Below, piece after piece: positions 56 to 27,579 of a DNA stretch of 64,000 bases (its first letter is position 1; every line of letters starts with the position of its first letter). The notes beneath the pieces are model-generated. The model saw only the letters and a program-made list of their open reading frames with translations. It was not told where the DNA came from and did no database searches. Position numbers and translations under genes: made by a program. The DNA is from an uncultured Bacteroidales bacterium (GTDB taxonomy: Bacteria > Bacteroidota > Bacteroidia > Bacteroidales > UBA932). The stretch is from positions 16,163 to 80,162 of the forward strand of contig CALVDO010000006.1 in assembly GCA_944326355.1 (NCBI GenBank). Direction: 5' to 3'.

Positions 56-940
56 TCACAGCTGAGTGACCACAGCGTCGTTGTTCTGCAATACTGAGGC
101 GTTCAGCGGGAAGGTAAGGAATTTTCCTGCATTGAAATCCACGAGAGACCTGGTCACGAAAGAGATCTCATGACGGTCCGTCCGGATGCTTATAGAGAAG
201 TCCTTGTCCTTATGGCTGCCCGGAGCGACCACGGCATAGGCCGTGATAATGTCCGTGACCTCAGGAGTGTGATAAAAAGTCAGGTTGAGCGCATTGGACA
301 CTGAAGTCCCGGACGCCATACGCAGCCCCGCGTCAAGATCGGTGAGGCTGTAGAGCCACTCCCCGGTGACCGGGTCACCAGTCGACTCGAGAGTGATGCT
401 CATGACCTTCTCATCCGGCGAGATGCCCTCCACCTCGTCAATGTCCACCTCGAATCTGAGCATTGACGCCATCTGCCTCAGTTTCATCACATATTCATTC
501 TCAGAAGTCTGAGAGATGCTCACAGAAGCCTTGACGTCATACTCCGACACGGAAGTCACGTTGACATACTCCTGATCCTGCGGAATGGAGACAGGGACGG
601 ACGAAATGTCCGTCACCGTCTCATCGTATGGATAGTAGGCATAGGCCGGGACATCCGACAGGCCGATCTCTCCCTGAAACACAGCCTGATAGGACGGCAC
701 AGTGGCCGTATTGGCCATGACGGCATTTGACGCCGAACCGCCGAACACCCCTATGCGGTCTCCGACTGACCACTCCATGAAAAGCTCTCCGGAAGAAATC
801 TCCCCTATCTGGGAGCGCGAGTCCGGGGAGGTCTCTGCGGAAGCGGTGATCCTCACCACTCGCATATCCGCAGACCCGTTTTTGGAGCATCCCGCCGCAA
901 GCAGGGAAACGGCCGCCAGAAGCAGTAACCTGTTCTTCAT
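56..940 (-). CDS. fimbrillin-like surface lipoprotein (hypothetical)
   Basis: ORF 56..1015. The internal ATG at 940 gives MKNRLLLLAAVSLLAAGC, a signal peptide plus lipobox. The N-terminal pattern TSPDSRSQIG...W.VGDRIGVF resembles Bacteroidales fimbrillin-like lipoproteins. It starts 4 nt after the stop of the upstream gene. Confidence 0.45.
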   Translation of the reverse strand: MKNRLLLLAAVSLLAAGCSKNGSADMRVVRITASAETSPDSRSQIGEISSGELFMEWSVGDRIGVFGGSASNAVMANTATVPSYQAVFQGEIGLSDVPAYAYYPYDETVTDISSVPVSIPQDQEYVNVTSVSEYDVKASVSISQTSENEYVMKLRQMASMLRFEVDIDEVEGISPDEKVMSITLESTGDPVTGEWLYSLTDLDAGLRMASGTSVSNALNLTFYHTPEVTDIITAYAVVAPGSHKDKDFSISIRTDRHEISFVTRSLVDFNAGKFLTFPLNASVLQNNDAVVTQL

Positions 941-944
941 ACCT

Positions 945-3458
945 TTACTGGATTGCCGAGCCTTCGGAATCATATCCCGAAGCGTTACTACGGTTACTTG
1001 AAGTTGCCAACGCAAACTTGAAGTTGTTGGTCATGATGAGCGACGGGAGCCGAGTTCCTTCAACATTGTATGTGGTACCATTAAATGTGACTTGATCCAC
1101 TCCCGCGAAATTCATATAGACGACCCCGAGCGGAGTACGGCCTTCGTTCACCAGATTATATATCAAATTAGCGGCATACGGATTAATATACTGCGCAAGC
1201 AAAGCGTTGTTACCACCTTCACCTCTCGACGATCCTGAACCGGGATCAACATTCAGCCAAATCTGACCATCACTGCCACTTGGTTCAGAACCATTTATTG
1301 TCAAATAGTCATGTTTTGTATTGACGGCAGTCTGATAATCGATTATGTCAAAGGACCCTCTATTCCGCCAATACCCACCGAATATCCACGTATATTCATA
1401 TCTTGTAACAGTTGCATATCCAGTACTTAAATGTTCTGAATCGTTGACAACGCAAAATCCGCCCAAGTCATTAATATAAAGATTATTGGTCCGCTGATCT
1501 CCAGTTGTGGCATTATTGGTCCTGGATCTTTCGAACAATTCTGCAATCAAACCCTGCTTGGTCCGAATCAGATCCAGACTTACATCGTTATCCAAGGCGT
1601 AAGCCTCTGTAATGAAATACGGACACAAGCCTACACCATCATATCCGGACAGAGTCGGATTGTTCATCTGCTGCAGATCTTGCAGAGTGACATGTCCACT
1701 ACCTCTATTGCTGCCGATATTCATTTCATGCAAAGTCAAATTCTGGACGCTCGTCCCATAATTTGTAAGGACATTCACATGATTTGAGCTTACTGTCGGC
1801 GAATCCCCCAAATCAGTTGGACAATGTATCATGACGCCGATACCATGTCTCATGGCACCGACTGTTGTAGTGGAAACGATTTCTCGAAAATAGTCAGTAT
1901 CTCCATCATTCTCAGTTGAACCGTCCGCTACTGTATCAGTTCTCGTAGGACTCCATGCATTTACTGCTGAGCATACCGCGTTAAGCCAGTCCTGAGCGCT
2001 ATGGCGCTGCACATAATTGACACCGATTATGACAAACTCTGTAGGCGCGCTGTCAAGTTTGTCCTTAATTGTTGTCAACATTTGAGAAAATGTAATATTA
2101 ACCGGATGACCGGCAATATAAATATAAAGTCCAGGGGTATCTATGCCATAGTCTCTGACATTTCTCAGGTCATCCCTAGTAATATTGTCCAGTTTAACAT
2201 CAAAAGCTCTTACGCCAGCATCGAACTGCTGATCAATATCAATAGTCTGAAATGTCTGCATCCGATCTGTTGCCGGATCATACGAGCCTGCTTCATCATT
2301 ATAAAGCTGGTAAGTGTAGGAATGTTTTGTGCCAGGGAGAGAGAGCTGCGAAGCGAAGAGGACATCGTTGTCAATCATGCTCATCCAGTTGGATGTCTGA
2401 GCAGGATTAATCTTCGGCGTACGCACTTTGATGATCTTTCCATGGACAAGAGTGGGATCTTCTTGATTGCCTGCAGGCACGAGTCGCTGACTAATGGTCT
2501 GCCCGTTCTCAAGAAGCACCGATACCGTAAGTTCACTCGCTTTAATGTCCTGAGGAAGGAGGAAAAACTTTACGTTGAGCTTCTCTCCAGGATTAAGTTC
2601 CAGAGCCACTCCGTTCTCCTGGCAGTCTACCCACGCCAGCCTGTTGCTGTCAGAACCAGGTGACGTGTATGTGAAGTCACCGTTTGCAACATCATAGTTA
2701 AAACTTCCGACAATAGGCTGACTATCGCTTCTTACAGATACGCCAAGAATGTCATACTTCGTACCTCCGGCATTGACCACGACATCAAGCACAAGTACGA
2801 TGGGCTCGAAAGTCAGGGAGACATTTCTCGGCGACTGATCTACATCCGCCGTAGTCGGAGACCATGTTCCGTGTCCGGCCATCATGGCATAAGTCATGTT
2901 CGGAGCGACTATTTTCCAAGTCACGCCACCATTCGTCTTTGTTTGTATATTTCCTCTTTCCTGAGCCACAGGGATGGTAGCAGAAACAACGGTATTCTCT
3001 GTGAGGCCGCTGATTGAGCTCATTCCTCCTGTAGCGTCGTCCACGGTAAGCGGATAGAAGGCATAGAACTCATGCTGCTGAGAGACATCGCCCCAACGGA
3101 CGCCGACTTCACCGTTCTTCTGGAGATAATATCCCGTATTCTCACCAGTGCTCATCACCGTGTAGTCTGCCGACTTGCACTCCTCTGAAGCCTGAGGGCT
3201 GTACACCCTCACCTGATCCTGATTTGCGAGCCAGTTTATCTCCAATGAAGAGTAATTCTGATAATCTCCCGGATCACCATAAATCGTGCGCGTCTGCGGA
3301 GTGTCGGAGGTGTCCTCATTGACAACTGCTCCGAACGCGACCTCGCCTTCATTGACGGTCGGAGGCGTGACGACCTTCTGCTCCAGCTGCTCCTCTACGC
3401 AGCCGGAGAGAACAAGCGCAAGGCTTGAAGCCAAGCATATTCCGATTCTTTTCATCAT
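945..3458 (-). CDS. lipoprotein with a fimbrillin-like N-terminal region fused to a PI-PLC-like (PLC-X TIM barrel) phosphodiesterase domain
   Basis: ORF 945..3503. The ATG at 3458 gives MMKRIGICLASSLALVLSGC (lipobox). The C-terminal ~480 aa (about 945..2396) align by eye with Bacillus PI-PLC: SNWMSMI..LSLPGTKHS, GVRAFDVKL, AGHP, LYINDLGG, YINPYAANLIY, GVVYMNF. Confidence 0.55.
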   Translation of the reverse strand: MMKRIGICLASSLALVLSGCVEEQLEQKVVTPPTVNEGEVAFGAVVNEDTSDTPQTRTIYGDPGDYQNYSSLEINWLANQDQVRVYSPQASEECKSADYTVMSTGENTGYYLQKNGEVGVRWGDVSQQHEFYAFYPLTVDDATGGMSSISGLTENTVVSATIPVAQERGNIQTKTNGGVTWKIVAPNMTYAMMAGHGTWSPTTADVDQSPRNVSLTFEPIVLVLDVVVNAGGTKYDILGVSVRSDSQPIVGSFNYDVANGDFTYTSPGSDSNRLAWVDCQENGVALELNPGEKLNVKFFLLPQDIKASELTVSVLLENGQTISQRLVPAGNQEDPTLVHGKIIKVRTPKINPAQTSNWMSMIDNDVLFASQLSLPGTKHSYTYQLYNDEAGSYDPATDRMQTFQTIDIDQQFDAGVRAFDVKLDNITRDDLRNVRDYGIDTPGLYIYIAGHPVNITFSQMLTTIKDKLDSAPTEFVIIGVNYVQRHSAQDWLNAVCSAVNAWSPTRTDTVADGSTENDGDTDYFREIVSTTTVGAMRHGIGVMIHCPTDLGDSPTVSSNHVNVLTNYGTSVQNLTLHEMNIGSNRGSGHVTLQDLQQMNNPTLSGYDGVGLCPYFITEAYALDNDVSLDLIRTKQGLIAELFERSRTNNATTGDQRTNNLYINDLGGFCVVNDSEHLSTGYATVTRYEYTWIFGGYWRNRGSFDIIDYQTAVNTKHDYLTINGSEPSGSDGQIWLNVDPGSGSSRGEGGNNALLAQYINPYAANLIYNLVNEGRTPLGVVYMNFAGVDQVTFNGTTYNVEGTRLPSLIMTNNFKFALATSSNRSNASGYDSEGSAIQ

Positions 3459-3471
3459 CTCTGCAAAATTT

Positions 3472-3657
3472 TCAGTTCCACTCTTGCTCATTGGAAAAAT
3501 CAAAAATGTTTTCCGTGTCCACCTGCTGATCTTGTATTTTCAGCGACTCGGTGTTTTCCGGCTTCTCATACACGGAGGCGGCCATAAACCCGTTCTCCAC
3601 CTCGACTTCCGTGCGGAAGGTCTGAGGCTTTTCATAATGATTCTTTTTCATACGCAT
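3472..3657 (-). CDS. small acidic hypothetical protein (61 aa)
   Basis: ATG at 3657 (alternative 3651) inside track ORF 3472..3804. The sequence is MRMKKNHYEKPQTFRTEVEVENGFMAASVYEKPENTESLKIQDQQVDTENIFDFSNEQEWN, with no signal peptide. It sits 19 nt after the wzc stop and 13 nt before the next start. Only the packing supports it as coding. Confidence 0.3.
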   Translation of the reverse strand: MRMKKNHYEKPQTFRTEVEVENGFMAASVYEKPENTESLKIQDQQVDTENIFDFSNEQEWN

Positions 3658-3676
3658 ATTGTTTTTATTGTTGATT

Positions 3677-6076
3677 TTAATTGTGTCTTTTCTTTCTGAA
3701 GAAATGTCTGATACGCTTCCATGCGCTCTTCTTCTCTGCGCCGTAGCCATAACCATAACCGTAGCCATAACCATAGCCGTAACCGTACCCATAGCCGTAG
3801 CCATTGCGGCTCAAGTCGGCGCCGTTAAGTACGAGCGCCATGTTGACAAGCTTCTTCTCACTGTACATCTTCCCGATGTCAGGAAGGGCACGGCGGTCGA
3901 GGCGCCCTGCACGCACTACGAATATCGTGAGATCGGCCACCCTGTTGGTGACCATGGCATCCGCCACCAGTCCGACAGGTACACCGTCTGCTATGATATA
4001 GTCATATCGTCGCTTGAGCTCGGCGAAAAGGTCGTCGAGACGGGAGGACAGAAGCAGCTCGGTAGGATTCGGAGCCGAAGATCCTGCCGTCACCATGTCA
4101 GGAACGCCGTGTACATCGCTCTTGTGGAGTATGTCGTCAGCCGTGAGCTTAGGGTTGGCGAGGTAGTCGGTCAGGCCCGTGCCCCGGTGCCCGAAGCTCT
4201 TTGAGAGCGTACCCTTGCGGATGTCAAGATCCACCATCACCACCTTCTTGCCCGTATAGGCAAGGCTCGCGGCAAGATTGACGGAGATGAACGTCTTTCC
4301 CGCACCCTCGTTAATCGAAGTGAGGGTGAACACCTGCGAACGGCCGTCCCTGTCGGTCATGAACGACATGTTGGTGCGCAGAATCCGGAACGCCTCGGAA
4401 AGCACGTCGCGGCTCTTCTCTTCCACTGCGGGGCCCGCCTGATCCCTTTTTCGCTTCAGATGCCTGTCCAGAGGTATCTCTCCGAGGAAAGGTATGTCCA
4501 CGGCATCCTCTATGTCCTTGCGCGTGTGCACCCTCGTGTCGAGAAAGAGCATCATCAGGAAGATGATTCCCGGCACGGCGAGGCCAGCGAGCGCCCCCAG
4601 AATCAGAATCTTGTTGCGGCTCGGAGATACGGGCGACATGCTTCCGTCCGCCTCGTCGATAACCCTCGCGTTGTTGTCGGCCATCGCCTGCGAGAGCGCA
4701 TTCTCCTCACGCCTGTTGAGGAGGAACATGTAGAGGCTCTCCTTTATCTTCTGCTGACGCTCTATCGAGAGCATCTCTCTCTGCTGAGTCGGGATGGAGG
4801 TCATGCGCTCCTGCGCCCTCTGCTCACGGCTGCGCACATCGTTGAGCCGCACGTTGAGACTCACTATCATATTGTCCACGGCGCGGATGATGGTCTGCTT
4901 CATGGCCCTGAGCGAATTGTTGAGCTCCTGCACCACTGGGTTCATCTCGCTGCTGTCGTCTATCAGCTTGTCGCGGCGGAGCTTGATGGCGTTGTACTGG
5001 TTGATCTGCGACTCAATGTTCATGTCGCTGATGCCGGTGTTGGCCGGAATCAGGTCAACTTCCTTCGTCGGGTCGGTCAGATAGCTCTTGATGTAGTCGG
5101 CAAGTTCGAGCTGTGTCTCGAGCTCAAGCACGCTGGAGGTGTATTTCTGCGTCTCCTGCATATACATTCCGGCTGTCGATGAGATGTCGACGACCTGATT
5201 GTCCTTCTTGAATGACTCGAGGTCGGTCTCCACGGAGCCGAGTTCGCGCTCGATGATGATGAGCCTGTCGTTGATGAAATTGGCAGTATTGATGGCCACC
5301 TGGTTCTTGTCGTTGATCGCGTCCTCGTTGTAGACCGTGATGAGCATGTTGAGCACATCCCGGGCGCGCATCGGGGATGCGTCTCTGATTGAAAGGTTGA
5401 GGATGGAAGATTCCTCCCCTTCCTGTCTGATGCCGATAGCGCCCCGGTAGTAAGCCACCATCGACTCGACCGGCATCTTGGTCACAAAGATGTCCCGGCC
5501 TTTCCATGAGCTGTTGTAGTAGTTGGTGCGTGTCACAACCGCACGCACGCCGTCTCCTATGCTGAGAGTGTCGCTGACGGCGGCTGTCATGGCAATGCTC
5601 TTCTTGCCCTGAGGGATGGAGACTCTCACTGAGTCGGCCGTCAGAGGAGTGACTGTCATCGACACCCATCTTCCCGGGATGGCGTCGATGAAGTTGACCG
5701 CCAGCGGAGACTGGGTATAGAGCTCACGCTCGCGAAGCCTGTCCTCCACCTTGTAGCTGACGTCGGCGTGTACCCTTTCGACCACATCCCGAAGCAGCTT
5801 CTTCGAACGGAACTGAAGTATCTCGTTGGCGACATTGACCTTGTTGATGAAATTGTCATAACGGTCAAGTCCTGCCGTGGAGGTCTTGTTGGACGGATCC
5901 TTGATGATCACCGTAGCAGAAGCAAAATACACGAAAGGACGGCTCGCATAGACTATCCATGCCAGGCCCACGAACACCACAAGAGACAGGACGAACCACC
6001 TCCACTTGGAGAGGAGGTACATGAAAAGGTCAATTATGTTGATCTCGTTTTTTCCCGACTGATTCTTTGACTGCAT
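3677..6076 (-). CDS. wzc: polysaccharide co-polymerase / tyrosine autokinase (Wzc-like, PCP2a)
   Basis: 799 aa. It has an N-terminal TM segment, a Wzz-type periplasmic coiled-coil region, a second TM segment and a Walker A motif (SINEGAGKTFISVNLA). VMVDLDIRKG and DYIIADGVPVG are also present, and the C-terminal tail is Tyr-rich. Confidence 0.9.
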   Translation of the reverse strand: MQSKNQSGKNEINIIDLFMYLLSKWRWFVLSLVVFVGLAWIVYASRPFVYFASATVIIKDPSNKTSTAGLDRYDNFINKVNVANEILQFRSKKLLRDVVERVHADVSYKVEDRLRERELYTQSPLAVNFIDAIPGRWVSMTVTPLTADSVRVSIPQGKKSIAMTAAVSDTLSIGDGVRAVVTRTNYYNSSWKGRDIFVTKMPVESMVAYYRGAIGIRQEGEESSILNLSIRDASPMRARDVLNMLITVYNEDAINDKNQVAINTANFINDRLIIIERELGSVETDLESFKKDNQVVDISSTAGMYMQETQKYTSSVLELETQLELADYIKSYLTDPTKEVDLIPANTGISDMNIESQINQYNAIKLRRDKLIDDSSEMNPVVQELNNSLRAMKQTIIRAVDNMIVSLNVRLNDVRSREQRAQERMTSIPTQQREMLSIERQQKIKESLYMFLLNRREENALSQAMADNNARVIDEADGSMSPVSPSRNKILILGALAGLAVPGIIFLMMLFLDTRVHTRKDIEDAVDIPFLGEIPLDRHLKRKRDQAGPAVEEKSRDVLSEAFRILRTNMSFMTDRDGRSQVFTLTSINEGAGKTFISVNLAASLAYTGKKVVMVDLDIRKGTLSKSFGHRGTGLTDYLANPKLTADDILHKSDVHGVPDMVTAGSSAPNPTELLLSSRLDDLFAELKRRYDYIIADGVPVGLVADAMVTNRVADLTIFVVRAGRLDRRALPDIGKMYSEKKLVNMALVLNGADLSRNGYGYGYGYGYGYGYGYGYGYGAEKKSAWKRIRHFFRKKRHN
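3740..3802 (-). repeat. degenerate hexanucleotide repeat encoding (GY)10G in the Wzc tail
   Basis: Codon-by-codon reading gives G-Y x10 using mixed synonymous codons (ggc/ggt/ggg, tac/tat). A basic tail AEKKSAWKRIRHFFRKKRHN follows. Confidence 0.9.
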
Positions 6077-6127
6077 CTCAACTTGGATTTTTGAAGGTCA
6101 GATTGAGGATCGGCAGCTGCCTGTCCG

Positions 6128-6931
6128 TCATTTGTATGAATTTATCGCCCAGAGCACCGAACATACGGCCGTGACGACGGACAGCACAGTCGTGCCGATC
6201 TGCCATCCGCGGTCTTCCGCGTCTTTCTTGAGATACTTAGGCTCCACATATACTATGTCGTTCTGCTGCAGATAGTAGCATGGCGAGTTGAACACTTCCT
6301 TCGTACGGAGGTCCGCCACATACATCTGCCTGCTGTCTCCAACTTCCCGGATCACCGCCACTCTGTCGAGCTTTGCCTTCTGAGTCAGCCCCCCGGCCCT
6401 GGCTATGGCCTCGAACAGAGTCACCCTGTCGCCGGACACGTTATAGTTGCCCTCGCTCCCGACGGCCCCCAGAACCGTGTACTTGAAGTTGAGGAACTCG
6501 ATGGACACAAGCGGGTCCTTCATATAGTTGCCCTGCACGATCCTGTCTCTGATGAAAGCGATGGCCTGTCCTACGGTCATGCCGCCGAGATGAAGCTTGC
6601 CGAGAATGGGAAAGTCGATGTTGCCGTCGACATCCACACGGTAGCCTTCCTCCCTGAGCGAAGAGGCATTGGAATAGGTGCTGATGCTCCCGTCCGCACC
6701 CACCCGGAAACTCCCCTCATGGATGTTGAAAGGGATGGCGAGCTCCGGATTCTTACTGTTGACCGTTATCTTCAGCCTGTCGTCGCTCATGATCACCGCC
6801 TCGTGCTTTATGTCGACAGGATACGGCTCACCCGGAACCATGTCCTGAAGGTACAGAAATGTCTTCGGCGATGCGCACGAACTGAGCAGCAAAGATACTA
6901 CTAAAATTTTGAAAATCAAACCTTTTACCAT
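6128..6931 (-). CDS. wza: polysaccharide export outer-membrane lipoprotein (Wza/BexD family)
   Basis: 267 aa with lipobox LLLSSC. It shows a Poly_export-like region (YLQDM..Y.V...D.L.I.V) and a SLBB-like segment (GAVGSEGNYNVSGDRVTLFEAIARAGG). It lies directly upstream of wzc. Confidence 0.85.
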   Translation of the reverse strand: MVKGLIFKILVVSLLLSSCASPKTFLYLQDMVPGEPYPVDIKHEAVIMSDDRLKITVNSKNPELAIPFNIHEGSFRVGADGSISTYSNASSLREEGYRVDVDGNIDFPILGKLHLGGMTVGQAIAFIRDRIVQGNYMKDPLVSIEFLNFKYTVLGAVGSEGNYNVSGDRVTLFEAIARAGGLTQKAKLDRVAVIREVGDSRQMYVADLRTKEVFNSPCYYLQQNDIVYVEPKYLKKDAEDRGWQIGTTVLSVVTAVCSVLWAINSYK

Positions 6932-6949
6932 ATCAAAAATATCGTTTTT

Positions 6950-7936
6950 TCAATCTAAGTCACCGGCATTCCCGGCACAAGCCCCGCAGGGCTCTTCCGG
7001 CAAGCCAAGCCCCTTGCGGCAGACGGCCACGGCATCGGCATCAGGACGGCATTCGAGAATCCCGACAGGGATCATCTCCGACATCTCCACAAGGGTATCG
7101 CAGAGACAGTCGTACAGCCTCCTGTCTTTTCTTATGACAGAACATCCCGGGAGAAGCACCGAGAAGGCCTCAACGTCACTTTTGGGGACAAACCGGTTCT
7201 CCGACGCCTGCCTGAGACGGACGAGCCCCGCCACGGGAGCCTTCTCATTTCGATAACAGGGAGTCTTTCCGCTCCATGGTGTTCCGAAGGCCACTGCCCG
7301 GCCATTCTCAATGCGCAGAAACGGGTTATCGTCGTTCAGCAGCGTCGCGCCGGGCACAGTCCTGAGCCAAAGCGATGAATGCGTACTCTTGCCGATGCCG
7401 CTTCTGCCGGTGAAGAGATACGCCCTGCCTCCGCAGAGCACAGCCGAGGCATGAATTGACACAGCGCCATGCGGAAGCACAGCCTGCGAGCACGCTATCC
7501 TGAGCATCGAGGAAAGAGTCTGTCCGGCAAAGACGTCGGCCATATCCGTCGATATCACGACCGACTCAAACCTTCTGTCGGCCGTCATCACACAGGCCGC
7601 AGCACCCGGTCTCGAGGTCAGCTCCACCGTATAGCGGTCTCCGTCGGCGAAGAGCGTAGCCCTGCCCATGTCGTTGCTCGTCTCCTCAAGAACTACAGCC
7701 TCCCGGGAGGCTGTCCCGACAGCTGGCTCTGCCGAGGCAGCTACATCCGCGACAAAGAGAGGCTTCTCCCCCTCTTCCGGGACGGCCCTGAACGGGACGA
7801 ACGAGGGCAGCAGTCTGTCGATCACGGCATAGCCCGGCAAAGACGCTCCTTCCGCCCGGCTGAATCCGTCCGCCAGAGCCACTCCGAACAGGAATCCGGC
7901 CACTCTGTAAAAATGTATGTTGTCAGCAGATGCCAT
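6950..7936 (-). CDS. HPr kinase-related (HprK C-terminal/PEPCK-fold) P-loop kinase
   Basis: 328 aa. IHASAVLCGGRAYLFTGRSGIGKSTHSSLW...LLNDDN parallels the HprK segment HGVLVDV.G.GVLI.G.SGIGKSE..L...LVADD. The P-loop is at about 7382..7408. Confidence 0.6.
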   Translation of the reverse strand: MASADNIHFYRVAGFLFGVALADGFSRAEGASLPGYAVIDRLLPSFVPFRAVPEEGEKPLFVADVAASAEPAVGTASREAVVLEETSNDMGRATLFADGDRYTVELTSRPGAAACVMTADRRFESVVISTDMADVFAGQTLSSMLRIACSQAVLPHGAVSIHASAVLCGGRAYLFTGRSGIGKSTHSSLWLRTVPGATLLNDDNPFLRIENGRAVAFGTPWSGKTPCYRNEKAPVAGLVRLRQASENRFVPKSDVEAFSVLLPGCSVIRKDRRLYDCLCDTLVEMSEMIPVGILECRPDADAVAVCRKGLGLPEEPCGACAGNAGDLD

Positions 7937-7940
7937 TGTG

Positions 7941-9062
7941 TCAGTCGGCGCTTCTTCTCTGTCCGGACAGGAGTTCCAGAAAGACCGACAGGGTCTCTTC
8001 CGGAGCCACAGTCATCGAAAAGCCGCTGTTGCGAAGAAATGACGCAGCGGTATTGATCTTGCGTCTGAGCGAAGACGCCTCTCCGTCTGCCGCCTCCGGA
8101 ACGAACCTCCCGAAATTTCCTCCGCTGATTATCAGGTCGAGAAGAGCGTCAGGACTTGCCGAGAAGTCCTGATACGGAAGCAGCCCGGGGTCAAGGCCGA
8201 GACAGCCGACCATGAACGACTGCAGCACACGGGTCCATTTCCGTATTCCGGCCCGGCGGATCAGAGACTCAGCCTCATTCCCGTCTATCTCATCGTGCAG
8301 GAAGGCGCAGGCCACGGCCATGTCGCACACCTGTCTCAGCCCTACTCCCCTACCTACCGCGTGCTTGAGTATATGCAGATTGAGCATCAGAAGCTTAAGC
8401 ATCGGGCTCGGCACTCTGACAAGCACTCTCGATCCGGATGCAGCCCCCGCTACGATCTGACTGTCCTCAAATCCGTATTCAGACTCAAGCCTCTCAGCAA
8501 CTTTCTTTCTGAACGGGCTGTATATGTCGAGAAGCCGCCTGTGATGCTCTACCGGAATGCCATTCCACGAATAGCAGTCACTTCCGTCGGGAGCGCGTCT
8601 CACCCGGCATCCGTGTCCGGAAACAATGGCTGAAGCCTCGGCCTGCTCTTCCTCAGAGGTAAAGTAGAAATCTATGTCGCCGCACTCGCGCAACATCGGA
8701 TGAGCATACATCGCAGCCACGTCATGTCCCTTCTGGAGCACGGGAGAAATGCCGTTCTGACGGAACAGCAGACACAACTCGCCGAGAGCTTCGCCCATTC
8801 TCGCATTCCTGCGCTCAATAGCGTCGGCCTTGGCTGCCCATCTGACGAGAATCCCCACAGGCGGCTCCATAGGCTCTGGCAGGTGATGAAGTCCGAGATA
8901 TGCGACTCCTGTCACTGTCTGCCTTTCAGCCAGAGCAAGCACCTCTTCCCAAGCCTTCCCAGACAGAGGTCGGGCGGCAGGCAGCGAGGCATCAGGACGT
9001 CCCCAGAGTCCCGACCGAAGCAGAGAAAAAAGCATATCGATATTTCCGTCAGTCCTTTTCAT
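7941..9062 (-). CDS. uncharacterised nucleotidyltransferase family protein (PF14907/NTP_transf_5-like)
   Basis: ORF 7941..9086, with a probable start at 9062 or 9035. The motif LQKGHDVAAMYAHPMLRECGDIDFYF matches the LKG...Y....R..GDID hallmark of this family. The rest of the protein is helical. Confidence 0.6.
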   Translation of the reverse strand: MKRTDGNIDMLFSLLRSGLWGRPDASLPAARPLSGKAWEEVLALAERQTVTGVAYLGLHHLPEPMEPPVGILVRWAAKADAIERRNARMGEALGELCLLFRQNGISPVLQKGHDVAAMYAHPMLRECGDIDFYFTSEEEQAEASAIVSGHGCRVRRAPDGSDCYSWNGIPVEHHRRLLDIYSPFRKKVAERLESEYGFEDSQIVAGAASGSRVLVRVPSPMLKLLMLNLHILKHAVGRGVGLRQVCDMAVACAFLHDEIDGNEAESLIRRAGIRKWTRVLQSFMVGCLGLDPGLLPYQDFSASPDALLDLIISGGNFGRFVPEAADGEASSLRRKINTAASFLRNSGFSMTVAPEETLSVFLELLSGQRRSAD

Positions 9063-9366
9063 TGTCTTTCTCAGACACAAGACCATACTCCATCCAACGG
9101 GCGAGAATCTCCCTGACGTCGGCCAGGGCCATGTCCGATCCTATGCCATATTCGTCACTGAGCCATGCCGCGAGCGTCTCCTCCGTAAAGCAGGACGTCT
9201 CGGCGTGACGCCAGAGCGCCGCAGCCGTATCGTTCAGAGTGAAAACATCGGTCATGTTCACTCTCGTGTCGTCCACTTTGACTATCATGTGGCGACGTCC
9301 GACCGTCCTCAGTCTGAGGCCCGGATTCGTTTTCATCTTCTTCATTGCAAGATTCCCCATTCTCAA
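9049..9366 (-). CDS. PqqD-family protein (RRE-like peptide chaperone fold)
   Basis: About 100 aa (alternative start 9345). RLRTVGRRHMIVKVDD...VFTLNDTAAALWRHA...EETLAAWLSDEYGI....ADVREILARWMEYGLV is a typical PqqD-family length and pattern. Confidence 0.65.
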   Translation of the reverse strand: MRMGNLAMKKMKTNPGLRLRTVGRRHMIVKVDDTRVNMTDVFTLNDTAAALWRHAETSCFTEETLAAWLSDEYGIGSDMALADVREILARWMEYGLVSEKDNEKD

Positions 9367-9400
9367 AATCTTCCCTTCGGGGCAGACTACCTGTCCGGAA

Positions 9401-10060
9401 TCAGAATTTCCTGCCGGAAATTATGCTGACGGCCGTCATCCAGATTATCTTGACGTCAAACCTCAGCGAATATTCTCTGATATACTTCAGATCAAGCCTC
9501 AGACGCTCCAGCATCTTGTCCATCGTGTCCGTATAGCCGTTGAATAGAGTCGCCTCTGAAAACAGCCCGGGTCTCATCCCGTACAGATACTCATAGTCGG
9601 GGTTATGCTCCATAATCATATCCACGAAGCACTGTCTCTCAGGTCTGTATCCAACAAAGGACATATCTCCCTTCAGGACGTTCCACAGCTGCGGCAGCTC
9701 ATCGACATGATGCTCCCTGAGGAATTTCCCTATGCGGGTGAGCCTGTCGTCATCCTCCTGGCAGAGCTGAGGCACACCGTCCTTCTCCGCATCAATCGCC
9801 ATCGAGCGGAACTTGTAGATGGTGAAGGGTCTGCCTCTGTAGCCGACTCTTTCCTGCGAAAAAATTATCGGGCCACCGTCTTCTCTCTTGATCTTAAATG
9901 CTATCCACGCGAAAAGAGGAGAAAAGACCAGCATGCCGATAATCGAGCAAACGATGTCAAAAATCCTTTTGACACAAGCCTCGAACGGCGATATACGGTA
10001 AATGTCTGATGATGCCATCTCTTTCATAGTAATGTCTTTCTGCCTCAGAGGTAAATCCAT
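9401..10060 (-). CDS. initiating undecaprenyl-phosphate sugar phosphotransferase (bacterial sugar transferase, WbaP/EpsL-type C-terminal domain)
   Basis: ORF 9401..10099. Motifs seen are KRIFDIVCS, SPLF..IAFKIK, RPFTIYKFRSM and DELPQLWNVLKGDMSFVGYRPE. The start is ambiguous between 10060 and 10027. Confidence 0.9.
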   Translation of the reverse strand: MDLPLRQKDITMKEMASSDIYRISPFEACVKRIFDIVCSIIGMLVFSPLFAWIAFKIKREDGGPIIFSQERVGYRGRPFTIYKFRSMAIDAEKDGVPQLCQEDDDRLTRIGKFLREHHVDELPQLWNVLKGDMSFVGYRPERQCFVDMIMEHNPDYEYLYGMRPGLFSEATLFNGYTDTMDKMLERLRLDLKYIREYSLRFDVKIIWMTAVSIISGRKF

Positions 10061-10076
10061 TGCGACGGATTCAGTT

Positions 10077-11195
10077 TCAACACTGACACAATTTTTCATA
10101 TACTCTTAAACTATCGTTCAACATTTTCTGTCTGGTAAACAATGCCTTGTAGCGGCTCAAGGCATTTTCTGAATATCTTGCATAAGTCTCCGCATCTTTA
10201 GTCACCGCACGGATTGCTCCGGCAAGCGCATCAGCGTCACCGGGATCGGCATTCAGGCCGGAGACGCCATGCTCGTTGACCCATGAGGTGCCGGAGCCCG
10301 GTATGTTGGTGGCTACGACCGGCTTTCCGCATGACATGGCCTCAATCTGGGCGATTCCGAACGCCTCTGTCTTCTGTATTGAACTCAGACAGAAGACGTC
10401 GCACGCATGGAACACCGACGGCAGGTCGCAGTCGCTGATGAAGCCGAGCAGCTTCACCTTGTCCTGAAGGCCGGATTCCCTGATCTGGGCCTCGAGACCT
10501 GTCCTGAGCGGTCCCTCACCGCCGATGAGCACCACATAGTCGTCCCCGAGATGCCTCGCGGCCTCTATGAGCGTACTGTGTCCCTTGTACTTAACCAGAC
10601 GGCCAAGCGAAAAGACTATCTTTTTTCCGGGATACCTCGCCCTGACCGCCGCGGCAGCATCACGGTCATAAGGGAGGGGCAGCACCCCGATCGGGATGCA
10701 GCGCGATTTGGCGCGGGCCTTCTTGAGGTCCGGGGATTGCTCTATGTATACCGGAGATGTTCCGATGATGACGTCGGCCCTGTCTATGAGCCAGGACTGC
10801 AGCGGACGGTACAGCGTTCCGAGAATCCTCTGTCTGAGGATATCGCTGTGCCAGTGCAGCACCACCCTGCCCCTGTAGCCTGAACGGCGCAGGGCAAGGC
10901 ATGCCATCGGATCGGGATGGTGGACATGGATTATGTCGTAATCACCGCATCTGCTCCTGAGAGTCGAAAGCAGGGAAGGAGAGATTGTAGTCGAAGCCAG
11001 AGTGCAGAGAGTCCTGCAGCATATCAGCTCCGCATGGCCGTTCTGCCGTATCACACGAGTGCCCCCCCCGTCGGCACAGGCGCACATCATGTCGCAGTCG
11101 ACGCCCATCTCAGACAGTCCTTTCATAAGGTCATACATCACCTTTTCAACTCCTCCCTTGACGGGATAGAATTTTCCAAGCTGGAGTATCTTCAT
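10077..11195 (-). CDS. glycosyltransferase family 4 (GT-B)
   Basis: 372 aa. MKILQLGKFYPVKGGVE at the N-terminus and the E(x7)E region TEAFGIAQIEAMSCGKPVVATNIPGSG. Confidence 0.85.
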   Translation of the reverse strand: MKILQLGKFYPVKGGVEKVMYDLMKGLSEMGVDCDMMCACADGGGTRVIRQNGHAELICCRTLCTLASTTISPSLLSTLRSRCGDYDIIHVHHPDPMACLALRRSGYRGRVVLHWHSDILRQRILGTLYRPLQSWLIDRADVIIGTSPVYIEQSPDLKKARAKSRCIPIGVLPLPYDRDAAAAVRARYPGKKIVFSLGRLVKYKGHSTLIEAARHLGDDYVVLIGGEGPLRTGLEAQIRESGLQDKVKLLGFISDCDLPSVFHACDVFCLSSIQKTEAFGIAQIEAMSCGKPVVATNIPGSGTSWVNEHGVSGLNADPGDADALAGAIRAVTKDAETYARYSENALSRYKALFTRQKMLNDSLRVYEKLCQC

Positions 11196-11258
11196 AACTT
11201 GTCAGAATAGTCAGATATAAGGATTAATATGAAAAATGTTCAGATGTAGACAAGACAA

Positions 11259-12365
11259 TCAGGCAAGGATCAGGTCGAACAGCTCTTTCCACGACCTCGT
11301 CACCGGCGGCTCTATGTCGAGGCAAGGCACAGGATGCAGGAAAGATCCGTCGTTCTGAATCAGTCTTTTCATCATGTTTTTCAGTTCCATATGGTCATCC
11401 GGGGAGAAAAAGGCCGTCATCCGGCTTCCTGCCGCCGTCTCATGCGCATAAGGCAGATCCGCCAGAAGCATCGGCTTCCCGAACGCCGCAAATTCCGAGA
11501 TCGGCAGTCCCCATGTCTCCACTAAAGACGGGAATATCAGACAGTCGGACCTGCCGTAAAGTTCATAAAGCTTCTCCTTAGGCATGAATCCGGCGAAATC
11601 TATCGAAGAGACTCCTCCCCACCTGCTGCAGAGCCATCTCGTGTATCTGTTCTCGTCTCGGGAGACTGTCATGACTACCCTGAATTTCCCGGTTCCGACC
11701 TCCCGCTCAAGGCATTCAGCCGCCTTGCACACAGTCTCGAAGTTCTTGTGCACGTCGCAGTAGGACGGGAAGATGAAAGTGTAGCGGCCAGACCGTTCCG
11801 CATTCACGGACTGTCCCGCCACGGCGGATGATGACGCAGGAAGCGCCACGGCTATCCTGGACGGGTCCAGACGGAACATGGAGACGAACGCATTTCTGAT
11901 CCACTGCTGCTGCACCAGCACGAGGTCATTCTTACGGATGTTTATCCTGTAGATGTACCGCGAGAAGCAGGCAAAACAGAATATCCTGTAATTCAAGAAG
12001 ATATCCTTCACCTTCAATTTATAGAACGGGAACGGATTGTGACAGTAGACGGCTCTCTTCGCCGCCTTCACATTGGGTGTGGCGTCATGCAGCGAAAGCC
12101 ACAGATATACCGGCGACAGACGCTTTGAGATGCTGTTCATAGTCACATATTCGCACCAAAGTCTCTTCAGCCAGCTCGACGCGACATCGGGCATCTCAAT
12201 GAACTCAATGCCCTCGAACGGGGTCAGGTCCTTCCTGTGGACCAGGGCGATGACCTCATACTCCCCTGTCCGAGCCAGCCCGGAGAGATATTCCAGACAG
12301 TCGCGCAATATCGTCAGGGTGCCGCCCTTGCGCAGATTTACGGCTGAAACGACGATCTTTTTCAT
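11259..12365 (-). CDS. glycosyltransferase, GT-B fold (family 1/4-like)
   Basis: 368 aa. The C-terminal region LIFPSLVETWGLPISEFAAFGKPMLLADLPYAHE is typical of Glycos_transf_1. Confidence 0.75.
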   Translation of the reverse strand: MKKIVVSAVNLRKGGTLTILRDCLEYLSGLARTGEYEVIALVHRKDLTPFEGIEFIEMPDVASSWLKRLWCEYVTMNSISKRLSPVYLWLSLHDATPNVKAAKRAVYCHNPFPFYKLKVKDIFLNYRIFCFACFSRYIYRINIRKNDLVLVQQQWIRNAFVSMFRLDPSRIAVALPASSSAVAGQSVNAERSGRYTFIFPSYCDVHKNFETVCKAAECLEREVGTGKFRVVMTVSRDENRYTRWLCSRWGGVSSIDFAGFMPKEKLYELYGRSDCLIFPSLVETWGLPISEFAAFGKPMLLADLPYAHETAAGSRMTAFFSPDDHMELKNMMKRLIQNDGSFLHPVPCLDIEPPVTRSWKELFDLILA

Positions 12366-13138
12366 TTCTTCATCAGGAAAAGAAGAAACTTCATATAATG
12401 GATCAGCTTCTCGACAGGAGACTTCCTGACCCAGCTGTTCTCACAATAGTGTATCGCATACGATGCAGGTGTGGCTTCACGCCTGTTGCCGGCGAAGATT
12501 TCGGAGCGATAGATCATGACTCCGTCATCAAGAGCCTGATCCTCATCCTTGTACAGGAATCCGTACTTTTCCGCCGCCCTCGCGTATATCTGAGGGGCGA
12601 TCACCTTCATGCCGACCATCTGCCCGTCCCGGACGAAATGCCTGTCGGCGTATGAGTCGAGGATGTCCTTCACGAATCCGCATCCCTTTTCCGCGCCCAT
12701 GACCGCCGCCTGTATCTGAATCCCTGAGACATAGCCGTCCACAAGCCTGTGTCCCTCTGCGTCGATCTTTGATGCAGTCCCCTCCTGCTCCACCTCAAAA
12801 GGGTGATGCTCAACGCAAGAGAAGAAACGCGAGCCGAGAAAACGGTCAAACCTCTTCAGCACCTTCACATCGGAGTCCAGATAGATTCCGCCCTCGGTGT
12901 AGAGAGCATAGAGCCTTATGTAGTCCGCCACGAAAGCCCATTTCCTCTGGGCGAACGCCTCCTTGACATAAGGCACACTTCCCTCTATGTCAAAATTTTC
13001 CGTCGACCACAGCTTTATCTCGTAGTCCGGCATGACCTCTTTCCATGAAGCCATGCAGTCGCGGATCTTCTCCGGGTACGGGTCACCGCTCAGCCAGCAG
13101 TAATGTATCACTTTCGGTATCATCTCCGATTTCATCAA
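12362..13138 (-). CDS. glycosyltransferase family 32-like (Gly_transf_sug, DXD)
   Basis: 258 aa. IPKVIHYCWLSG, ADYIRLYALYTEGGIYLDSDV (DxD) and AIHYCENSW. Confidence 0.75.
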   Translation of the reverse strand: MMKSEMIPKVIHYCWLSGDPYPEKIRDCMASWKEVMPDYEIKLWSTENFDIEGSVPYVKEAFAQRKWAFVADYIRLYALYTEGGIYLDSDVKVLKRFDRFLGSRFFSCVEHHPFEVEQEGTASKIDAEGHRLVDGYVSGIQIQAAVMGAEKGCGFVKDILDSYADRHFVRDGQMVGMKVIAPQIYARAAEKYGFLYKDEDQALDDGVMIYRSEIFAGNRREATPASYAIHYCENSWVRKSPVEKLIHYMKFLLFLMKK

Positions 13139-14384
13139 ATATGCTTTCCGTCACCACATTGTCCTCCACATCCAGCAGGAGAAGCAGCGCGTAGACGAGG
13201 AAAATGTCAGTAGAAATCTTCACCCATACAGCCAGCACAAGAATAAACATGAGCACGAAAAGCATTCTGTCTGACCGGTATCTTTTCATCAGCGTCCATG
13301 TGCATGTCATGAAAAAGATGATGAACATGGACAGGCCCATAAGCCCGCAATAGAAAATGAAGCGCAGATAGCCGACGTCGGTGAACATATAGAATCCCCT
13401 GCCCAAAGGATCGTCGAACCATCCGTCTCCGATGAGCCATGTCTTGGCATTGTCAGGGAAGACGACCATTGACTGCAATCGGTCGGTCGAGGAAGTCGAC
13501 CAGTCACCGGTCTCAAAGAAGTTGATGAATCCTTCGAAACCATATTCGAAGTAACGTCTGAATCCCGGCATGGCCGAATATGCCGAATAGACGACTATCG
13601 CCAGCACCGCAAGGGAGACGACGACAGGCATGACTTTCTTCATGTCGTCAACCAGAGCCGTATCCGAATCTCTGAATCTCTGAATAAGCATGTAGACCAG
13701 AGACAGACCCAGACCCACAACGGTGGTCCTTGACATGACGCTGCCGAGAATCACTATGACGGCGAAGAGAAGCCAGTACCATTTGCGCCACATCGATGAG
13801 ACTCCGTGGGTCAGAAGCCAGCCAAGTCCGAGAAGGGCGCATGAGAAACGTATTCCCGCAGTGTCAAAATATGCGCCTATGCCATAAAGCCTGTGCGTTT
13901 TATGAAGATACTCAACATTCTGCGACACGACGCTGTCGACAAACATCTGCAGAGACGGAATATTGTCTATCATTATCCCGAGCACGGACTGGACGGCACA
14001 CACCCAGGCCATGTAATGGAAGATGAGCCTCATCCCGGCAGAGCCGTGAACGGCCCGAATCAGGGAGACTATCGCGTATGCACCTGATAGCCAGACAATC
14101 ATACTCACGATATAAGTGGCATAGGCATAGTCGTCCGTAGTGTTGTATGCCACCGAAGCGAATGAGACGAGAGAGAACAGCAGCGCCCAGCAATATATCC
14201 AGACAAAGCCGCTGTCCATGGTCAGTTTCCTGCCGTTTTTGATCCTGTTCCATACGAAGCACACGGCTCCGAACACGGCAAGCACCATCTTGGTGTTGAG
14301 CCCGGGCAGCGCGACGAGCTCGAACGGGAAATAGTACATGCTGAACACTATTCCCACGAATATGGCTTTCAGAAGATTGATCAT
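13083..14384 (-). CDS. O-antigen/capsule repeat-unit polymerase (Wzy-like) polytopic membrane protein
   Basis: 433 aa with about 10-12 hydrophobic segments and no soluble-domain motifs. It is the only polymerase-like membrane protein in a locus that also has Wzx. Confidence 0.6.
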   Translation of the reverse strand: MINLLKAIFVGIVFSMYYFPFELVALPGLNTKMVLAVFGAVCFVWNRIKNGRKLTMDSGFVWIYCWALLFSLVSFASVAYNTTDDYAYATYIVSMIVWLSGAYAIVSLIRAVHGSAGMRLIFHYMAWVCAVQSVLGIMIDNIPSLQMFVDSVVSQNVEYLHKTHRLYGIGAYFDTAGIRFSCALLGLGWLLTHGVSSMWRKWYWLLFAVIVILGSVMSRTTVVGLGLSLVYMLIQRFRDSDTALVDDMKKVMPVVVSLAVLAIVVYSAYSAMPGFRRYFEYGFEGFINFFETGDWSTSSTDRLQSMVVFPDNAKTWLIGDGWFDDPLGRGFYMFTDVGYLRFIFYCGLMGLSMFIIFFMTCTWTLMKRYRSDRMLFVLMFILVLAVWVKISTDIFLVYALLLLLDVEDNVVTESIFDEIGDDTESDTLLLAER

Positions 14385-16425: not shown

Positions 16426-17547
16426 TCACTTTCTTCCCGCCACTACCTTGAGGAGCCCCGGGAAATACCTGCGCAGCAGCCAGAAAGCCCCGAGCAGGGA
16501 AATGACTATAAATACCTCGGCCCCAATATATGTGAATATGATCTCTAAATCCGTATCAGGCCGCAAAATCATGAAGAAGATTTTGACCATTCGGTTGCAT
16601 ATCAAAGCGTGCGAGACATATATGAAGAAGCTCGCTGAAGCGAGAAACGGACTCACGGACACATACGACTTCTTCAGCAGCCAGGCTGCCAGATTGTATG
16701 CCAGAAGCAGCGACACGAACACATTGGCCAATTTGATGATTTTCACCAGCTCTACATTGTCATGAAAACACATGTGCGCGATGCCGAGAAGCGGATACAA
16801 TATCAGAGTCCATTTGAAATACGGACTGAAAGATGTGAAGATGTCCTTCCTGTTTATGCTCATATACGCTCCCCACGAAAAGAAGAAGAATGCGTTTGCG
16901 AGCAGATTGAACCTCCAGTTCAACGGCAGGATGAGACACACGCCCATGATCAGCAGCGGCCATCATTTCGCCCTCTTGAGCATCCAATACAGCAGCGGAG
17001 TAGTCAGGACTACAGTCATGAGATCCCTTAAAAACCACAGCGGGATGACCAGAGGATACGGAGATCCGGCATAGTCCGGCTCTCCCGGACCGACAAGAAG
17101 CCCTCCGTGATAAACCCAGTAGCACGACAGAATCGTCTTGAAATCCAGATTGACCCGCGTGTCCGGATAGGCAACGAAATCGCTGAATGCCGGAAGTGAT
17201 CTCACGAGAATGAGCACCAGTTCCAGCGTAATCCATATCAGATACGGGATAAGCAGAGTCTTTGTCCTGTTCTTCAGCTTCTTGAGCCATACGGCCGGCG
17301 TGAAGTCGTCCACATTCACAAAGAACACATATCCGGAAATGAAAAAGTATATCGGCACACTTATCCCCCGGAGGAACGCGTCTATGAACCTGCTGACCGA
17401 CATGAACATCGGACTGGATGCGGGATCAAACTGCTCGCCGCCGAAAGCCATGCCGCCGGAATTGAAGACATGTACCGTCACGACAATTACCGCCAGCGGG
17501 AAACGCAGCAGATCCAGACTCTGTGTTCTGAGATTACTCTGCCCCAT
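16426..17547 (-). pseudogene. acyltransferase family 3 (O-acyltransferase) interrupted by one in-frame TGA
   Basis: Track ORFs 16963..17547 and 16426..16947 are in the same frame. Reading through gives ...LYWMLKRAK-TGA-WPLLIMGVCLILPLNW..., about 373 aa in total, which is a normal length for this family. The N-terminus SLDLLRFPLAVIVVTVHVF is typical of acyltransferase_3. Confidence 0.7.
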
Positions 17548-20610: not shown

Positions 20611-20626
20611 GATAAAAAGCCTGTCT

Positions 20627-23616: not shown

Positions 23617-24386
23617 TCGTTTTGATATCTGGCCACTTTTGCGGGAACTCCAAGCACTACCGCATAATCCGGAACATCCTTAGTAACAACGGCTCCGGCA
23701 CCTACTCTGGCATATCTACCGATGCGGTTGCAAGAGGCAAGAATCACCGCCCCTACTCCAATGACAACACCCTCCTCTACAACAAGATCGGAAGGAAATA
23801 TCTCTGACCGTGACCGTCTGTAGTCGCTATGCTGAGCATGTGCATGTGTTTCTATAACAACACTATGCGTAAGCTGAACATTATCCTTGAGCACTACGCC
23901 ACCGGAATAGTCAATGAACACATGCTTCGCCAGCAGTACATTGTCTCCGATGCTTATTGTCCCCTCAAGATAATGCTGCCGACTTATGTTGACATCGTAT
24001 TCCACCATGAGGTTCTTGCCGGCATTGTAACGACGCTGATAAGCTCTCATCCTTTCGTCCCGCTTTCGACCGACTTCATATTTCACATCTCCGTATTTCA
24101 CCAGAAACTTTCTGTTCTCCATGAAGTCCTCATACCACAAGTCCCTCTTGATGCCGGCCTCTCTATATTTCTGTCCAAGTTCAAGTCTTCTTTCCTTCGG
24201 AAGAGAATGGAAATGTTCCTTCAGATACTGATTCGTCCACATCCTGTAAGTGCGCCAGCAATACAACATGTCCGCAAAGATACGCATACGGCTCAAAAGC
24301 CCTCTCTTTTCTGAAAGCGCAATCTCAGCTGAGTGAAGCCAGCCATAATGCAGCACTTGTCTCAACCGCCTGAAGTTCATTCTCAA
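23613..24386 (-). CDS. left-handed beta-helix (hexapeptide-repeat) acyl/acetyltransferase
   Basis: The C-terminal half carries hexapeptide repeats: ISIGDNVLLAKHVFI..SGGVVLKDNVQL...VVIGVGAVIL....IGRYARVGAGAVVTKDVPDYAVVLGVPAKV. Confidence 0.75.
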   Translation of the reverse strand: MRMNFRRLRQVLHYGWLHSAEIALSEKRGLLSRMRIFADMLYCWRTYRMWTNQYLKEHFHSLPKERRLELGQKYREAGIKRDLWYEDFMENRKFLVKYGDVKYEVGRKRDERMRAYQRRYNAGKNLMVEYDVNISRQHYLEGTISIGDNVLLAKHVFIDYSGGVVLKDNVQLTHSVVIETHAHAQHSDYRRSRSEIFPSDLVVEEGVVIGVGAVILASCNRIGRYARVGAGAVVTKDVPDYAVVLGVPAKVARYQND

Positions 24387-24407
24387 TCTAATACACGAAA
24401 GTAAAAC

Positions 24408-25319: not shown

Positions 25320-25331
25320 CTGATTCTATTC

Positions 25332-27553: not shown

Positions 27554-27579
27554 ATCTATCCATCATCTCATTAATATCG

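Follow-up and report, generated by a model that had tools for sequence, protein, structure and literature searches.

The closest described counterparts of the gene set reported here are the clusters for phosphorylated lasso peptides, represented by those for paeninodin (pade), pseudomycoidin (psm) and the Bradymonas product (bsf), with their genes A, B1, B2, C, D, K and N. In the bsf system, BsfB1, a recognition element (RRE) for peptides that are made on the ribosome and modified after translation (RiPPs), strongly stimulates the kinase BsfK, whose phosphorylation target is Ser3 of the core peptide; the residues H148, G163, G166, G168, K169, S170, D186 and D187 were shown by mutagenesis of BsfK to define lasso-peptide kinases (PMC10368454). 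The N enzyme of pseudomycoidin puts one or two hexoses onto the phosphate, and the precedents of a lasso-peptide kinase and a nucleotidyltransferase are as a first-pass annotation of the DNA described below had stated them (PMC8498205). Here we describe three adjacent genes in a 64,000-nucleotide stretch from an uncultured Bacteroidales bacterium of the lineage UBA932 (GCA_944326355.1, contig CALVDO010000006.1, positions 16,163 to 80,162; hereafter, the window), which encode a PqqD-family protein, a PF14907 nucleotidyltransferase and an HprK-like kinase within a capsule operon. We propose that this trio is the cytoplasmic tailoring core of a RiPP-like phospho-peptide pathway that has no lasso cyclase and is tied genetically to capsule export, a reading to which we assign a probability of roughly 55%.

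The system agrees with phosphorylated lasso clusters in having a discrete PqqD-type RRE, a kinase with the H...GxxGxGKS...DD motif, a nucleotidyltransferase gene beside the kinase gene, an ABC half-transporter and a short putative precursor with Y-x-x-P near its N-terminus. It differs in that a soluble S24/S26-type peptidase is found instead of the cyclase and the B2 peptidase, that the precursor family is unrelated and carries a long acidic tail ending in W or F and then D, E, N or Q, and that the cassette forms part of a capsule initiation/export block and has surface lipoprotein genes after it. The first-pass annotation had seen neither a lasso cyclase nor a leader peptidase, and this held across the loci surveyed: no Asn-synthetase-like cyclase (Asn_synthase) and no transglutaminase-like B2 peptidase (Transglut_core3) occurred in any Pfam-annotated context, and the gene order of loci of the window type leaves no room for them. 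We therefore rejected membership in the lasso clusters. By analogy, the system would correspond in its working to the K/N/B1/D part of a phosphorylated lasso cluster, yet it is not such a cluster, and it is both widespread and uncharacterised. A description of the cassette was not found in the literature or the family libraries that we searched, and a dedicated paper on RiPP mining in Bacteroidales does not mention it.

Three genes between the initiating transferase and wza

The three genes lie on the minus strand between the initiating sugar transferase gene and wza, where the first-pass annotation had placed them. They encode the PqqD-family protein, a discrete RRE (9049..9366), the NTP_transf_5 (PF14907) nucleotidyltransferase (7941..9086) and a P-loop peptide-kinase-like protein of 328 aa, assigned to the HprK/PEPCK fold by motif and fold (6950..7936). 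Immediately 5′ of the PqqD gene stands the gene for the initiating phosphoglycosyl transferase (PGT; Bac_transf; 9401..10099, minus strand; PF02397, 204 bits), and immediately 3′ of the kinase gene that for a Wza-type polysaccharide export protein (6128..6931, minus strand; Poly_export and SLBB matches), with a Wzc-type chain-length regulator/tyrosine autokinase beyond it (3677..6076, minus strand; Wzz, GNVR and AAA_31 matches; TIGR01007, 142 bits).

Gene calls for L095, a contig of the same species that is 98.9% identical to the window over positions 3803-13730, give a spacing of 13 nt between the PqqD and nucleotidyltransferase genes; the nucleotidyltransferase and kinase genes are 4 nt apart, and 18 nt separate the kinase gene from wza. 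Boundaries that overlap or are only 4 nt apart had been noted earlier, and the second part of that description stands. The longest open reading frames (ORFs) of PqqD and the nucleotidyltransferase do overlap by 38 nt, but since the L095 gene calls leave the 13-nt gap, this overlap is probably an artefact of upstream start codons. In this 99%-identical strain, PqqD is called with 103 aa, equivalent to 9049-9360, so that the true start likely lies near 9360 rather than at the TTG codon that opens the longest ORF (105 aa, containing VFTLNDTAAALW). The nucleotidyltransferase is called with 364 aa, equivalent to 7941-9035, and likely starts at 9035; its longest ORF has 381 aa and contains RECGDIDFYF.

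The family assignments of the first two proteins are firm, as the first-pass annotation had anticipated. PqqD reaches 46.1 bits against PF05402 (Pfam cut-off, 23.4 bits), and a PqqD profile built from 76 loci matches the lasso RRE BsfB1 at 30.6 bits. The nucleotidyltransferase reaches 128.2 bits against PF14907 (cut-off, 31.2 bits) and carries the pol-beta-type G[SG]...DxD motif, in which G119-D120-x-D122 is invariant among 28 homologues. Its AlphaFold2 (AF2) model (pLDDT 89.9) has a pol-beta-type core, and the closest solved folds, all of them weak matches, are ANT(2'')-Ia (TM 0.60-0.67), TglT and poly(A) polymerase. Sequence searches of the PDB with the nucleotidyltransferase, the kinase profile and PqqD returned no significant relative.

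For the kinase, the earlier HprK-like label holds in its motif and fold and fails as a family match. The protein contains GRSGIGKST...LLNDD and the lasso-peptide kinase pattern H-x14-G-x2-G-x-G-K-S ... D-D, and all eight BsfK catalytic residues have counterparts in it, H161, G176, G179, G181, K182, S183, D201 and D202 corresponding to H148...D187 of BsfK and being invariant among 26 homologues. The profile of the kinase loci matches BsfK at 38.8 bits across the catalytic core. At E ≤ 0.01 the kinase matched no Pfam family, including the HPr-kinase family PF07475, and against the PDB its profile reached HprK (1ko7) only at E 0.12. In Foldseek searches with the AF2 model (pLDDT 87.3), the whole protein was most like PEPCK (E 4.5e-7), and the C-terminal domain resembled HprK/P (1jb1, 1kkm; 3tqf, TM 0.62). 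HprK/P and PEPCK thus have the Walker A and DD motifs and the fold in common with the kinase, which differs from HprK/P in lacking a PF07475 match and an HPr/PTS context and in its N-terminal domain. Its HprK-like nature rests on motif and modelled fold.

Other described systems combine similar proteins. HPr-rel-A, an uncharacterised NCBIfam system, also consists of an HprK-related kinase (TIGR04352, HprK_rel_A) and a small PqqD protein (TIGR04353, PqqD_rel_X), and these two models are the best NCBIfam matches of the window kinase and PqqD. The scores, 15.9 bits against a cut-off of 200 for the kinase and 26.2 bits against 35 for PqqD, fall far under the curated thresholds, so HPr-rel-A is a different, distant family and the membership entertained in the first-pass annotation was rejected. 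SynChlorMet systems have a kinase, ScmC (TIGR04249/PF27840), that is paired with the PqqD-like ScmD. The kinase of one related locus (L042, of class B below) matches TIGR04249 weakly, at 19.7 bits, and many homologues bear precomputed PF27840 'ScmC' matches marked weak or faint, with none for the window kinase. Given these faint matches and the absence of radical SAM/SPASM genes (ScmE/ScmF) from every context, SynChlorMet membership was rejected too.

Distribution and neighbourhoods of the kinase family

The kinase has more than 5,370 homologues at E < 0.001 among 8,000 candidates examined, and relatives occur in at least 596 genomes when one genome per species is scanned. We surveyed the best 80 loci, to which the locus counts in this section refer, by running profiles built from the window proteins on all ORFs. 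Nearly all of these loci belong to Bacteroidota, including Bacteroides, Phocaeicola, Alistipes, Ca. Cryptobacteroides, Muribaculaceae, Prevotella, Sphingobacterium, Pedobacter and Olivibacter; the exception is L038, a short contig of a metagenome-assembled genome (MAG) labelled Flexilinea. PqqD is encoded on the same strand within 4 kb of the kinase in 74 loci, and a PF14907 enzyme is found near the kinase in 39. An S24-like peptidase adjoins the kinase in 45 loci and lies anywhere in the flank in 54, an ABC half-transporter is near it in 24, and wza is directly downstream of it in 36 loci from both Bacteroidales and Sphingobacteriales. The kinase-PqqD pair is therefore the core of the system, and the peptidase, the nucleotidyltransferase and the exporter are its recurrent partners.

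Gene order falls into three classes. Class A, the window type, reads PGT-PqqD-NTase-kinase-Wza-Wzc (NTase, nucleotidyltransferase), with the position of the PGT kept in most of its loci and a UpxY-like gene immediately before this series in L082, L085 and L099. Class C, from Sphingobacteriales, reads S24 peptidase-PqqD-NTase-ABC exporter-kinase-Wza-Wzc. Together, classes A and C account for 34 of the 80 loci. Class B (40/80 loci), mostly from Prevotellaceae and Bacteroidaceae, reads kinase-S24 peptidase-PqqD, often beside rpoD, and contains no polysaccharide gene. The capsule context is thus one of two main settings of the kinase-PqqD pair. Cultured carriers of the locus include Bacteroides mediterraneensis Marseille-P2644T (L015), Bacteroides caecigallinarum An428a (L026), Sphingobacterium corticibacterium 30C10-4-7 (L076) and Pedobacter sp. 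AW31-3R (L051) and, with class B cassettes, Hoylesella marshii DSM 16973 and Prevotella veroralis DSM 19559. In Prevotella, Hoylesella and related genera (L042 9833-11637, L054, L061 and 32 other loci), class B cassettes have no NTase, no wza and no recognisable precursor, and a secreted protein of ~167 aa is encoded upstream in 22 of these 35 loci. A Bacteroides MAG (L057) carries the series kinase-S24-PqqD-NTase-ABC-peptide-lipoprotein, with overlapping stop and start codons and without wza or wzc.

These neighbourhoods bear on whether the kinase and NTase act on a peptide at all. The first-pass annotation had allowed for a glycan or lipid-carrier substrate, and one could suppose that the two enzymes act on a repeat-unit sugar or on the undecaprenyl carrier to install a phosphate-linked substituent of the capsule, with PqqD as a scaffold only. 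Small alcohols are classically activated in two steps by a kinase and then a nucleotidyltransferase, as in LicA/LicC; the best whole-fold match of the kinase, PEPCK, is a small-molecule kinase, the NTase fold is closest to ANT(2''), which nucleotidylates a sugar hydroxyl, and the trio stands between the initiating transferase and wza in 34/80 loci of Bacteroidales and Sphingobacteriales. Against this, the 40 loci that have kinase-PqqD with a peptidase and without polysaccharide genes make a glycan or lipid-carrier substrate less likely, and in L057 the operon is complete, with peptide and exporter included, yet has neither wza nor wzc. Moreover, the catalytic motif of the kinase equals that of the peptide kinases, and every characterised PqqD-family protein is a peptide-binding domain (PMC7470986; PMC10368454). 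On balance we regard a non-peptide substrate as distinctly unlikely.

The same survey speaks to a different origin, in which a lasso-peptide cluster would have ended up in a capsule locus and the trio would be what is left of it, no longer active. Its parts (B1, K, N and D) are of the same kinds as those of phosphorylated lasso clusters, and the cyclase and the B2 peptidase are missing, as a remnant would have it. However, the number of kinase homologues and of species that carry one, the invariant catalytic residues, the conservation of gene order and tight spacing across two Bacteroidota classes, and the absence of a lasso cyclase from all annotated contexts leave this explanation with hardly any credibility.

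A candidate precursor peptide

The first-pass annotation reported no visible peptide substrate, although it listed a 61-aa ORF among the options. That ORF (MRMKKNHYEKPQTFRTEVEVENGFMAASVYEKPENTESLKIQDQQVDTENIFDFSNEQEWN; 3472..3657, minus strand), recovered by small-ORF clustering and searches with hidden Markov models (HMMs), turned out to belong to a conserved family with a leader-like block and the same position past wzc at other loci, and we consider it a candidate precursor. When the small intergenic ORFs of the surveyed loci were clustered, one conserved family emerged on the operon strand just past wzc. HMM searches found it in 19 of the 80 loci; of the 21 class A loci whose sequence continues for 9 kb or more downstream, 14 have it. 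At many loci it lies directly past wzc, as in the window. A collection of 5.8 billion proteins contains 146 clusters of the family, their named members are all 'hypothetical', and no Pfam or NCBIfam model matches it.

All members of the family have Y8, P11 and E21, and at least 90% have S28. Conservation covers the first ~28 residues, and beyond them the peptide is variable and acidic, usually ending in W or F and then D, E, N or Q, an arrangement that looks like the usual layout of leader and core. Codons for the invariant Pro (CCA, CCT, CCC and CCG) occur in near-equal numbers, and codon differences are most frequent at position 3 (0.65, against 0.45 and 0.37 at positions 1 and 2); because third positions differ most and the Pro codons vary, selection acts on the peptide at the protein level. 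Judged by sequence, the family has what is generally expected of a RiPP precursor, namely a short gene product with a conserved recognition region and a variable core, encoded beside modifying enzymes.

Eight clusters of the family were also looked up by the peptide itself, independently of the kinase search, and for all eight, each with upstream sequence, PGT-PqqD-NTase-kinase-Wza-Wzc lay directly upstream in at least one place. The peptide is directly 3′ of the ABC exporter in L057, as a short variant (...MEQYEAPRMEVIEMEIEGPILNLSGEDGYRQNW), and directly 3′ of PqqD-kinase-NTase in L076.

A different target for the trio has to be weighed here: another peptide, encoded elsewhere, or a terminal segment of Wzc, Wza, the transferase or a nascent lipoprotein, with the enzymes in the latter case serving as an export regulator. 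HprK is a regulatory Ser kinase, and in class A loci the kinase gene always immediately precedes wza-wzc; there are also loci on either side of the association, with class B cassettes that have no peptide of the 61-aa family nearby and with peptide-lipoprotein pairs that occur without the trio in L084 and L100. We find such a target doubtful, given the typical conserved-leader, variable-core layout of the 61-aa family, its co-location with the trio in 8/8 of the peptide clusters examined, its place right after the ABC exporter or the NTase in L057 and L076, and the dedicated peptidase and exporter, which suit a small secreted product better than a regulator.

Peptidase, exporter and lipoproteins downstream

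The trio does not stand by itself: the system also includes an ABC exporter and an S24/S26-like peptidase, whose genes lie just outside the window. In L095, whose peptide is 100% identical to that of the window, the sequence past the left edge of the window encodes an 826-aa lipoprotein, a fimbrillin-like protein that corresponds to window positions 56-943 and an OmpA-family protein. Further on, ~6.5-8.5 kb from the peptide gene, come the gene for an ABC exporter (546 aa) and that for an S24/S26 peptidase (149 aa), on the opposite strand and beside rpoC. In L087/88 and L092-94 this pair of genes lies on the operon strand, after the peptide, lipoprotein and OmpA genes. Of the 21 class A loci that extend at least 9 kb downstream, 11 have S24 and ABC genes. 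Members of the S24-like family have a GNSMxP serine motif and none of 60 has a transmembrane segment; among curated models they come closest to those of signal peptidase I, LexA and the Ni-SOD maturation protease, without reaching any of the cut-offs. These features fit a soluble leader peptidase.

The peptide gene of the window is followed by the gene for a large surface lipoprotein of 837 aa with the signal MMKRIGICLASSLALVLSGC (945..3458, minus strand), a putative partner or cargo that matches no Pfam or NCBIfam model, and then by that for a fimbrillin-like protein (Mfa_like_1; 56..943, minus strand; PF13149, 33.4 bits against a cut-off of 27). Such a gene always comes after the peptide gene: in ~30 loci a predicted lipoprotein of 430-1100 aa with a signal peptide and a lipobox Cys, often followed by acidic residues, starts 0-94 nt past the peptide gene, and some of these relatives bear weak Mfa_like_1 matches. 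Compared with L095, the window lipoprotein (945-3458) is hypervariable: positions ~1153-2361 are unalignable, and positions 2361-3730, which span the N-terminal part of the lipoprotein, the peptide gene and the end of wzc, are 84.5% identical.

Several further observations concern these pairs. The peptides of L084 and L100 are identical to those of L082 and L099; each has its own lipoprotein, and in L100 the pair stands directly after wza-wzc. The large lipoprotein occurs in tandem copies at several loci (L014, L020 and L030), and L099 (15746-18883, minus strand) has, on the opposite strand, another small ORF of 73 aa in front of one for a 966-aa protein; the peptide/lipoprotein pairs may be multi-copy. 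The flanks of the peptide-lipoprotein pair in L082-L086 and L097-L099 repeatedly contain AAA_14/DUF4143 genes and toxin-antitoxin genes (HipBA, Gp49/HTH), which hints at a recombination-prone spot.

A proposed pathway and its weak points

We propose a pathway that, to judge by the families of its proteins, draws on parts familiar from phosphorylated lasso peptides, namely B1 (RRE), K (kinase) and N (nucleotidyltransferase), and we infer each of its steps by analogy with those peptides. PqqD would bind the conserved N-terminal block (Y8-x-x-P11 ... E21) of the 61-aa peptide, and the kinase would use ATP to phosphorylate a Ser or Thr hydroxyl, for which S28, just past the conserved block, is the best candidate. 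The PF14907 enzyme would then add a further group to the phosphate, either a hexose, as in pseudomycoidin, or a nucleotide. Finally, the soluble S24/S26-type peptidase would cut off the N-terminal block and the ABC half-transporter would export the product. If Y8 is set at position -17, as in lasso leaders, the core would run from residue 25, which would make S28 its fourth residue and place it near Ser3 of BsfA.

A number of observations weigh against this phospho-peptide pathway. The likeness of Y-x-x-P to the YxxPxL leader motif of lasso peptides (BsfA) is not statistically significant, and mutation of YxxPxL in BsfA did not abolish phosphorylation. As a whole fold, the kinase is closest to PEPCK enzymes, whose substrates are small molecules. 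The trio does not lie within 10 kb upstream of the peptide in L084 and L100, no more than 14 of the 21 class A loci with sufficient flank yielded the peptide, and its gene is coupled more tightly to the lipoprotein gene (0-94 nt) than to the trio. Across the 40 class B loci, all-against-all clustering of small ORFs, a leader-only HMM and a motif regular expression turned up almost no peptide of the family; weak motif-consistent matches came only from L041, L057, L072 and L001, with none in Prevotella-type loci. Since it is nearly absent from class B, the 61-aa family cannot be the sole substrate family.

The placement of the cassette between PGT and Wza, kept across two classes, suggests in addition a link to polysaccharide export that the phospho-peptide pathway does not explain; co-expression or co-regulation with the capsule is the minimal reading of this position. 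A bolder one is that the phosphorylated Ser of the peptide is converted to a nucleoside-diphospho or sugar-phospho ester, in a LicA/LicC-like manner, and that a phosphodiester then joins peptide and glycan, giving a peptide-primed or peptide-tagged capsule that the lipoproteins might hold or display. Such a capsule would account for the position of the cassette between the initiating transferase and Wza-Wzc in two Bacteroidota classes. We nevertheless rate it as very unlikely.

The surrounding capsule operon

The trio belongs to a long minus-strand operon that begins with a UpxY/NusG-like gene (31349-31882) and a Polysacc_synt_3 flippase gene, continues with genes for DegT, two ATP-grasp ligases, an epimerase, a hexapeptide transferase and ~10 glycosyltransferases/acyltransferases, and has Bac_transf as the last of these. 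The frame is that of Bacteroidales Wzx/Wzy-dependent capsule loci (UpxY/NusG-like protein, flippase, glycosyltransferases, initiating PGT, Wza and Wzc); the Bacteroidales capsule and RiPP literature that we searched does not mention the PqqD/NTase/kinase insert or the downstream peptide of this operon. GC content drops to 0.445-0.48 at 20000-28000, in the middle of the capsule operon, against ~0.55 on either side, consistent with a horizontally exchanged variable region. An ORF at 16963-17547 (minus strand) spans only positions 3-148 of the 326 of the Acyl_transf_3 profile, and the neighbouring ORF at 16426-16947 (minus strand) has no Pfam match; together (16426-17547) they look like a single acyltransferase gene split by a frameshift or a stop.

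The first-pass annotation had drawn attention to the two ATP-grasp ligases of the operon; a link between them and the cassette did not hold up. The pair and a 325-aa protein without a family match adjoin DegT at 25332-28800 (minus strand), 16-20 kb away from the trio, and the ATP-grasp genes are absent at the other loci. Both proteins have only generic amino-acid-ligase/PurT-like matches, under the cut-offs, with no GAK model among the matches listed. The GAK system (ATP-grasp TIGR04356, amphi-Trp and HprK_rel_B) was rejected on these grounds. The ligases probably serve to decorate a capsule sugar with an amino acid and have nothing to do with the trio.

Significance

If the phospho-peptide pathway proposed here is correct, an unrecognised ribosomal-peptide pathway is present in hundreds of Bacteroidota species, among them common Bacteroidales of gut and rumen and Sphingobacteriales from soil. 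Its product would be a phosphorylated, further decorated acidic peptide, locked genetically to capsule export genes and to hypervariable lipoproteins. The pathway would constitute a cyclase-free branch of the kinase/nucleotidyltransferase chemistry of lasso-type peptides, and the peptide would be the first Bacteroidota substrate for PF14907 and for the ScmC-like kinase family. It would also raise the question of how a secreted peptide, the capsule and lipoproteins resembling those of type V pili cooperate at the cell surface, which bears on interactions with hosts and phages.

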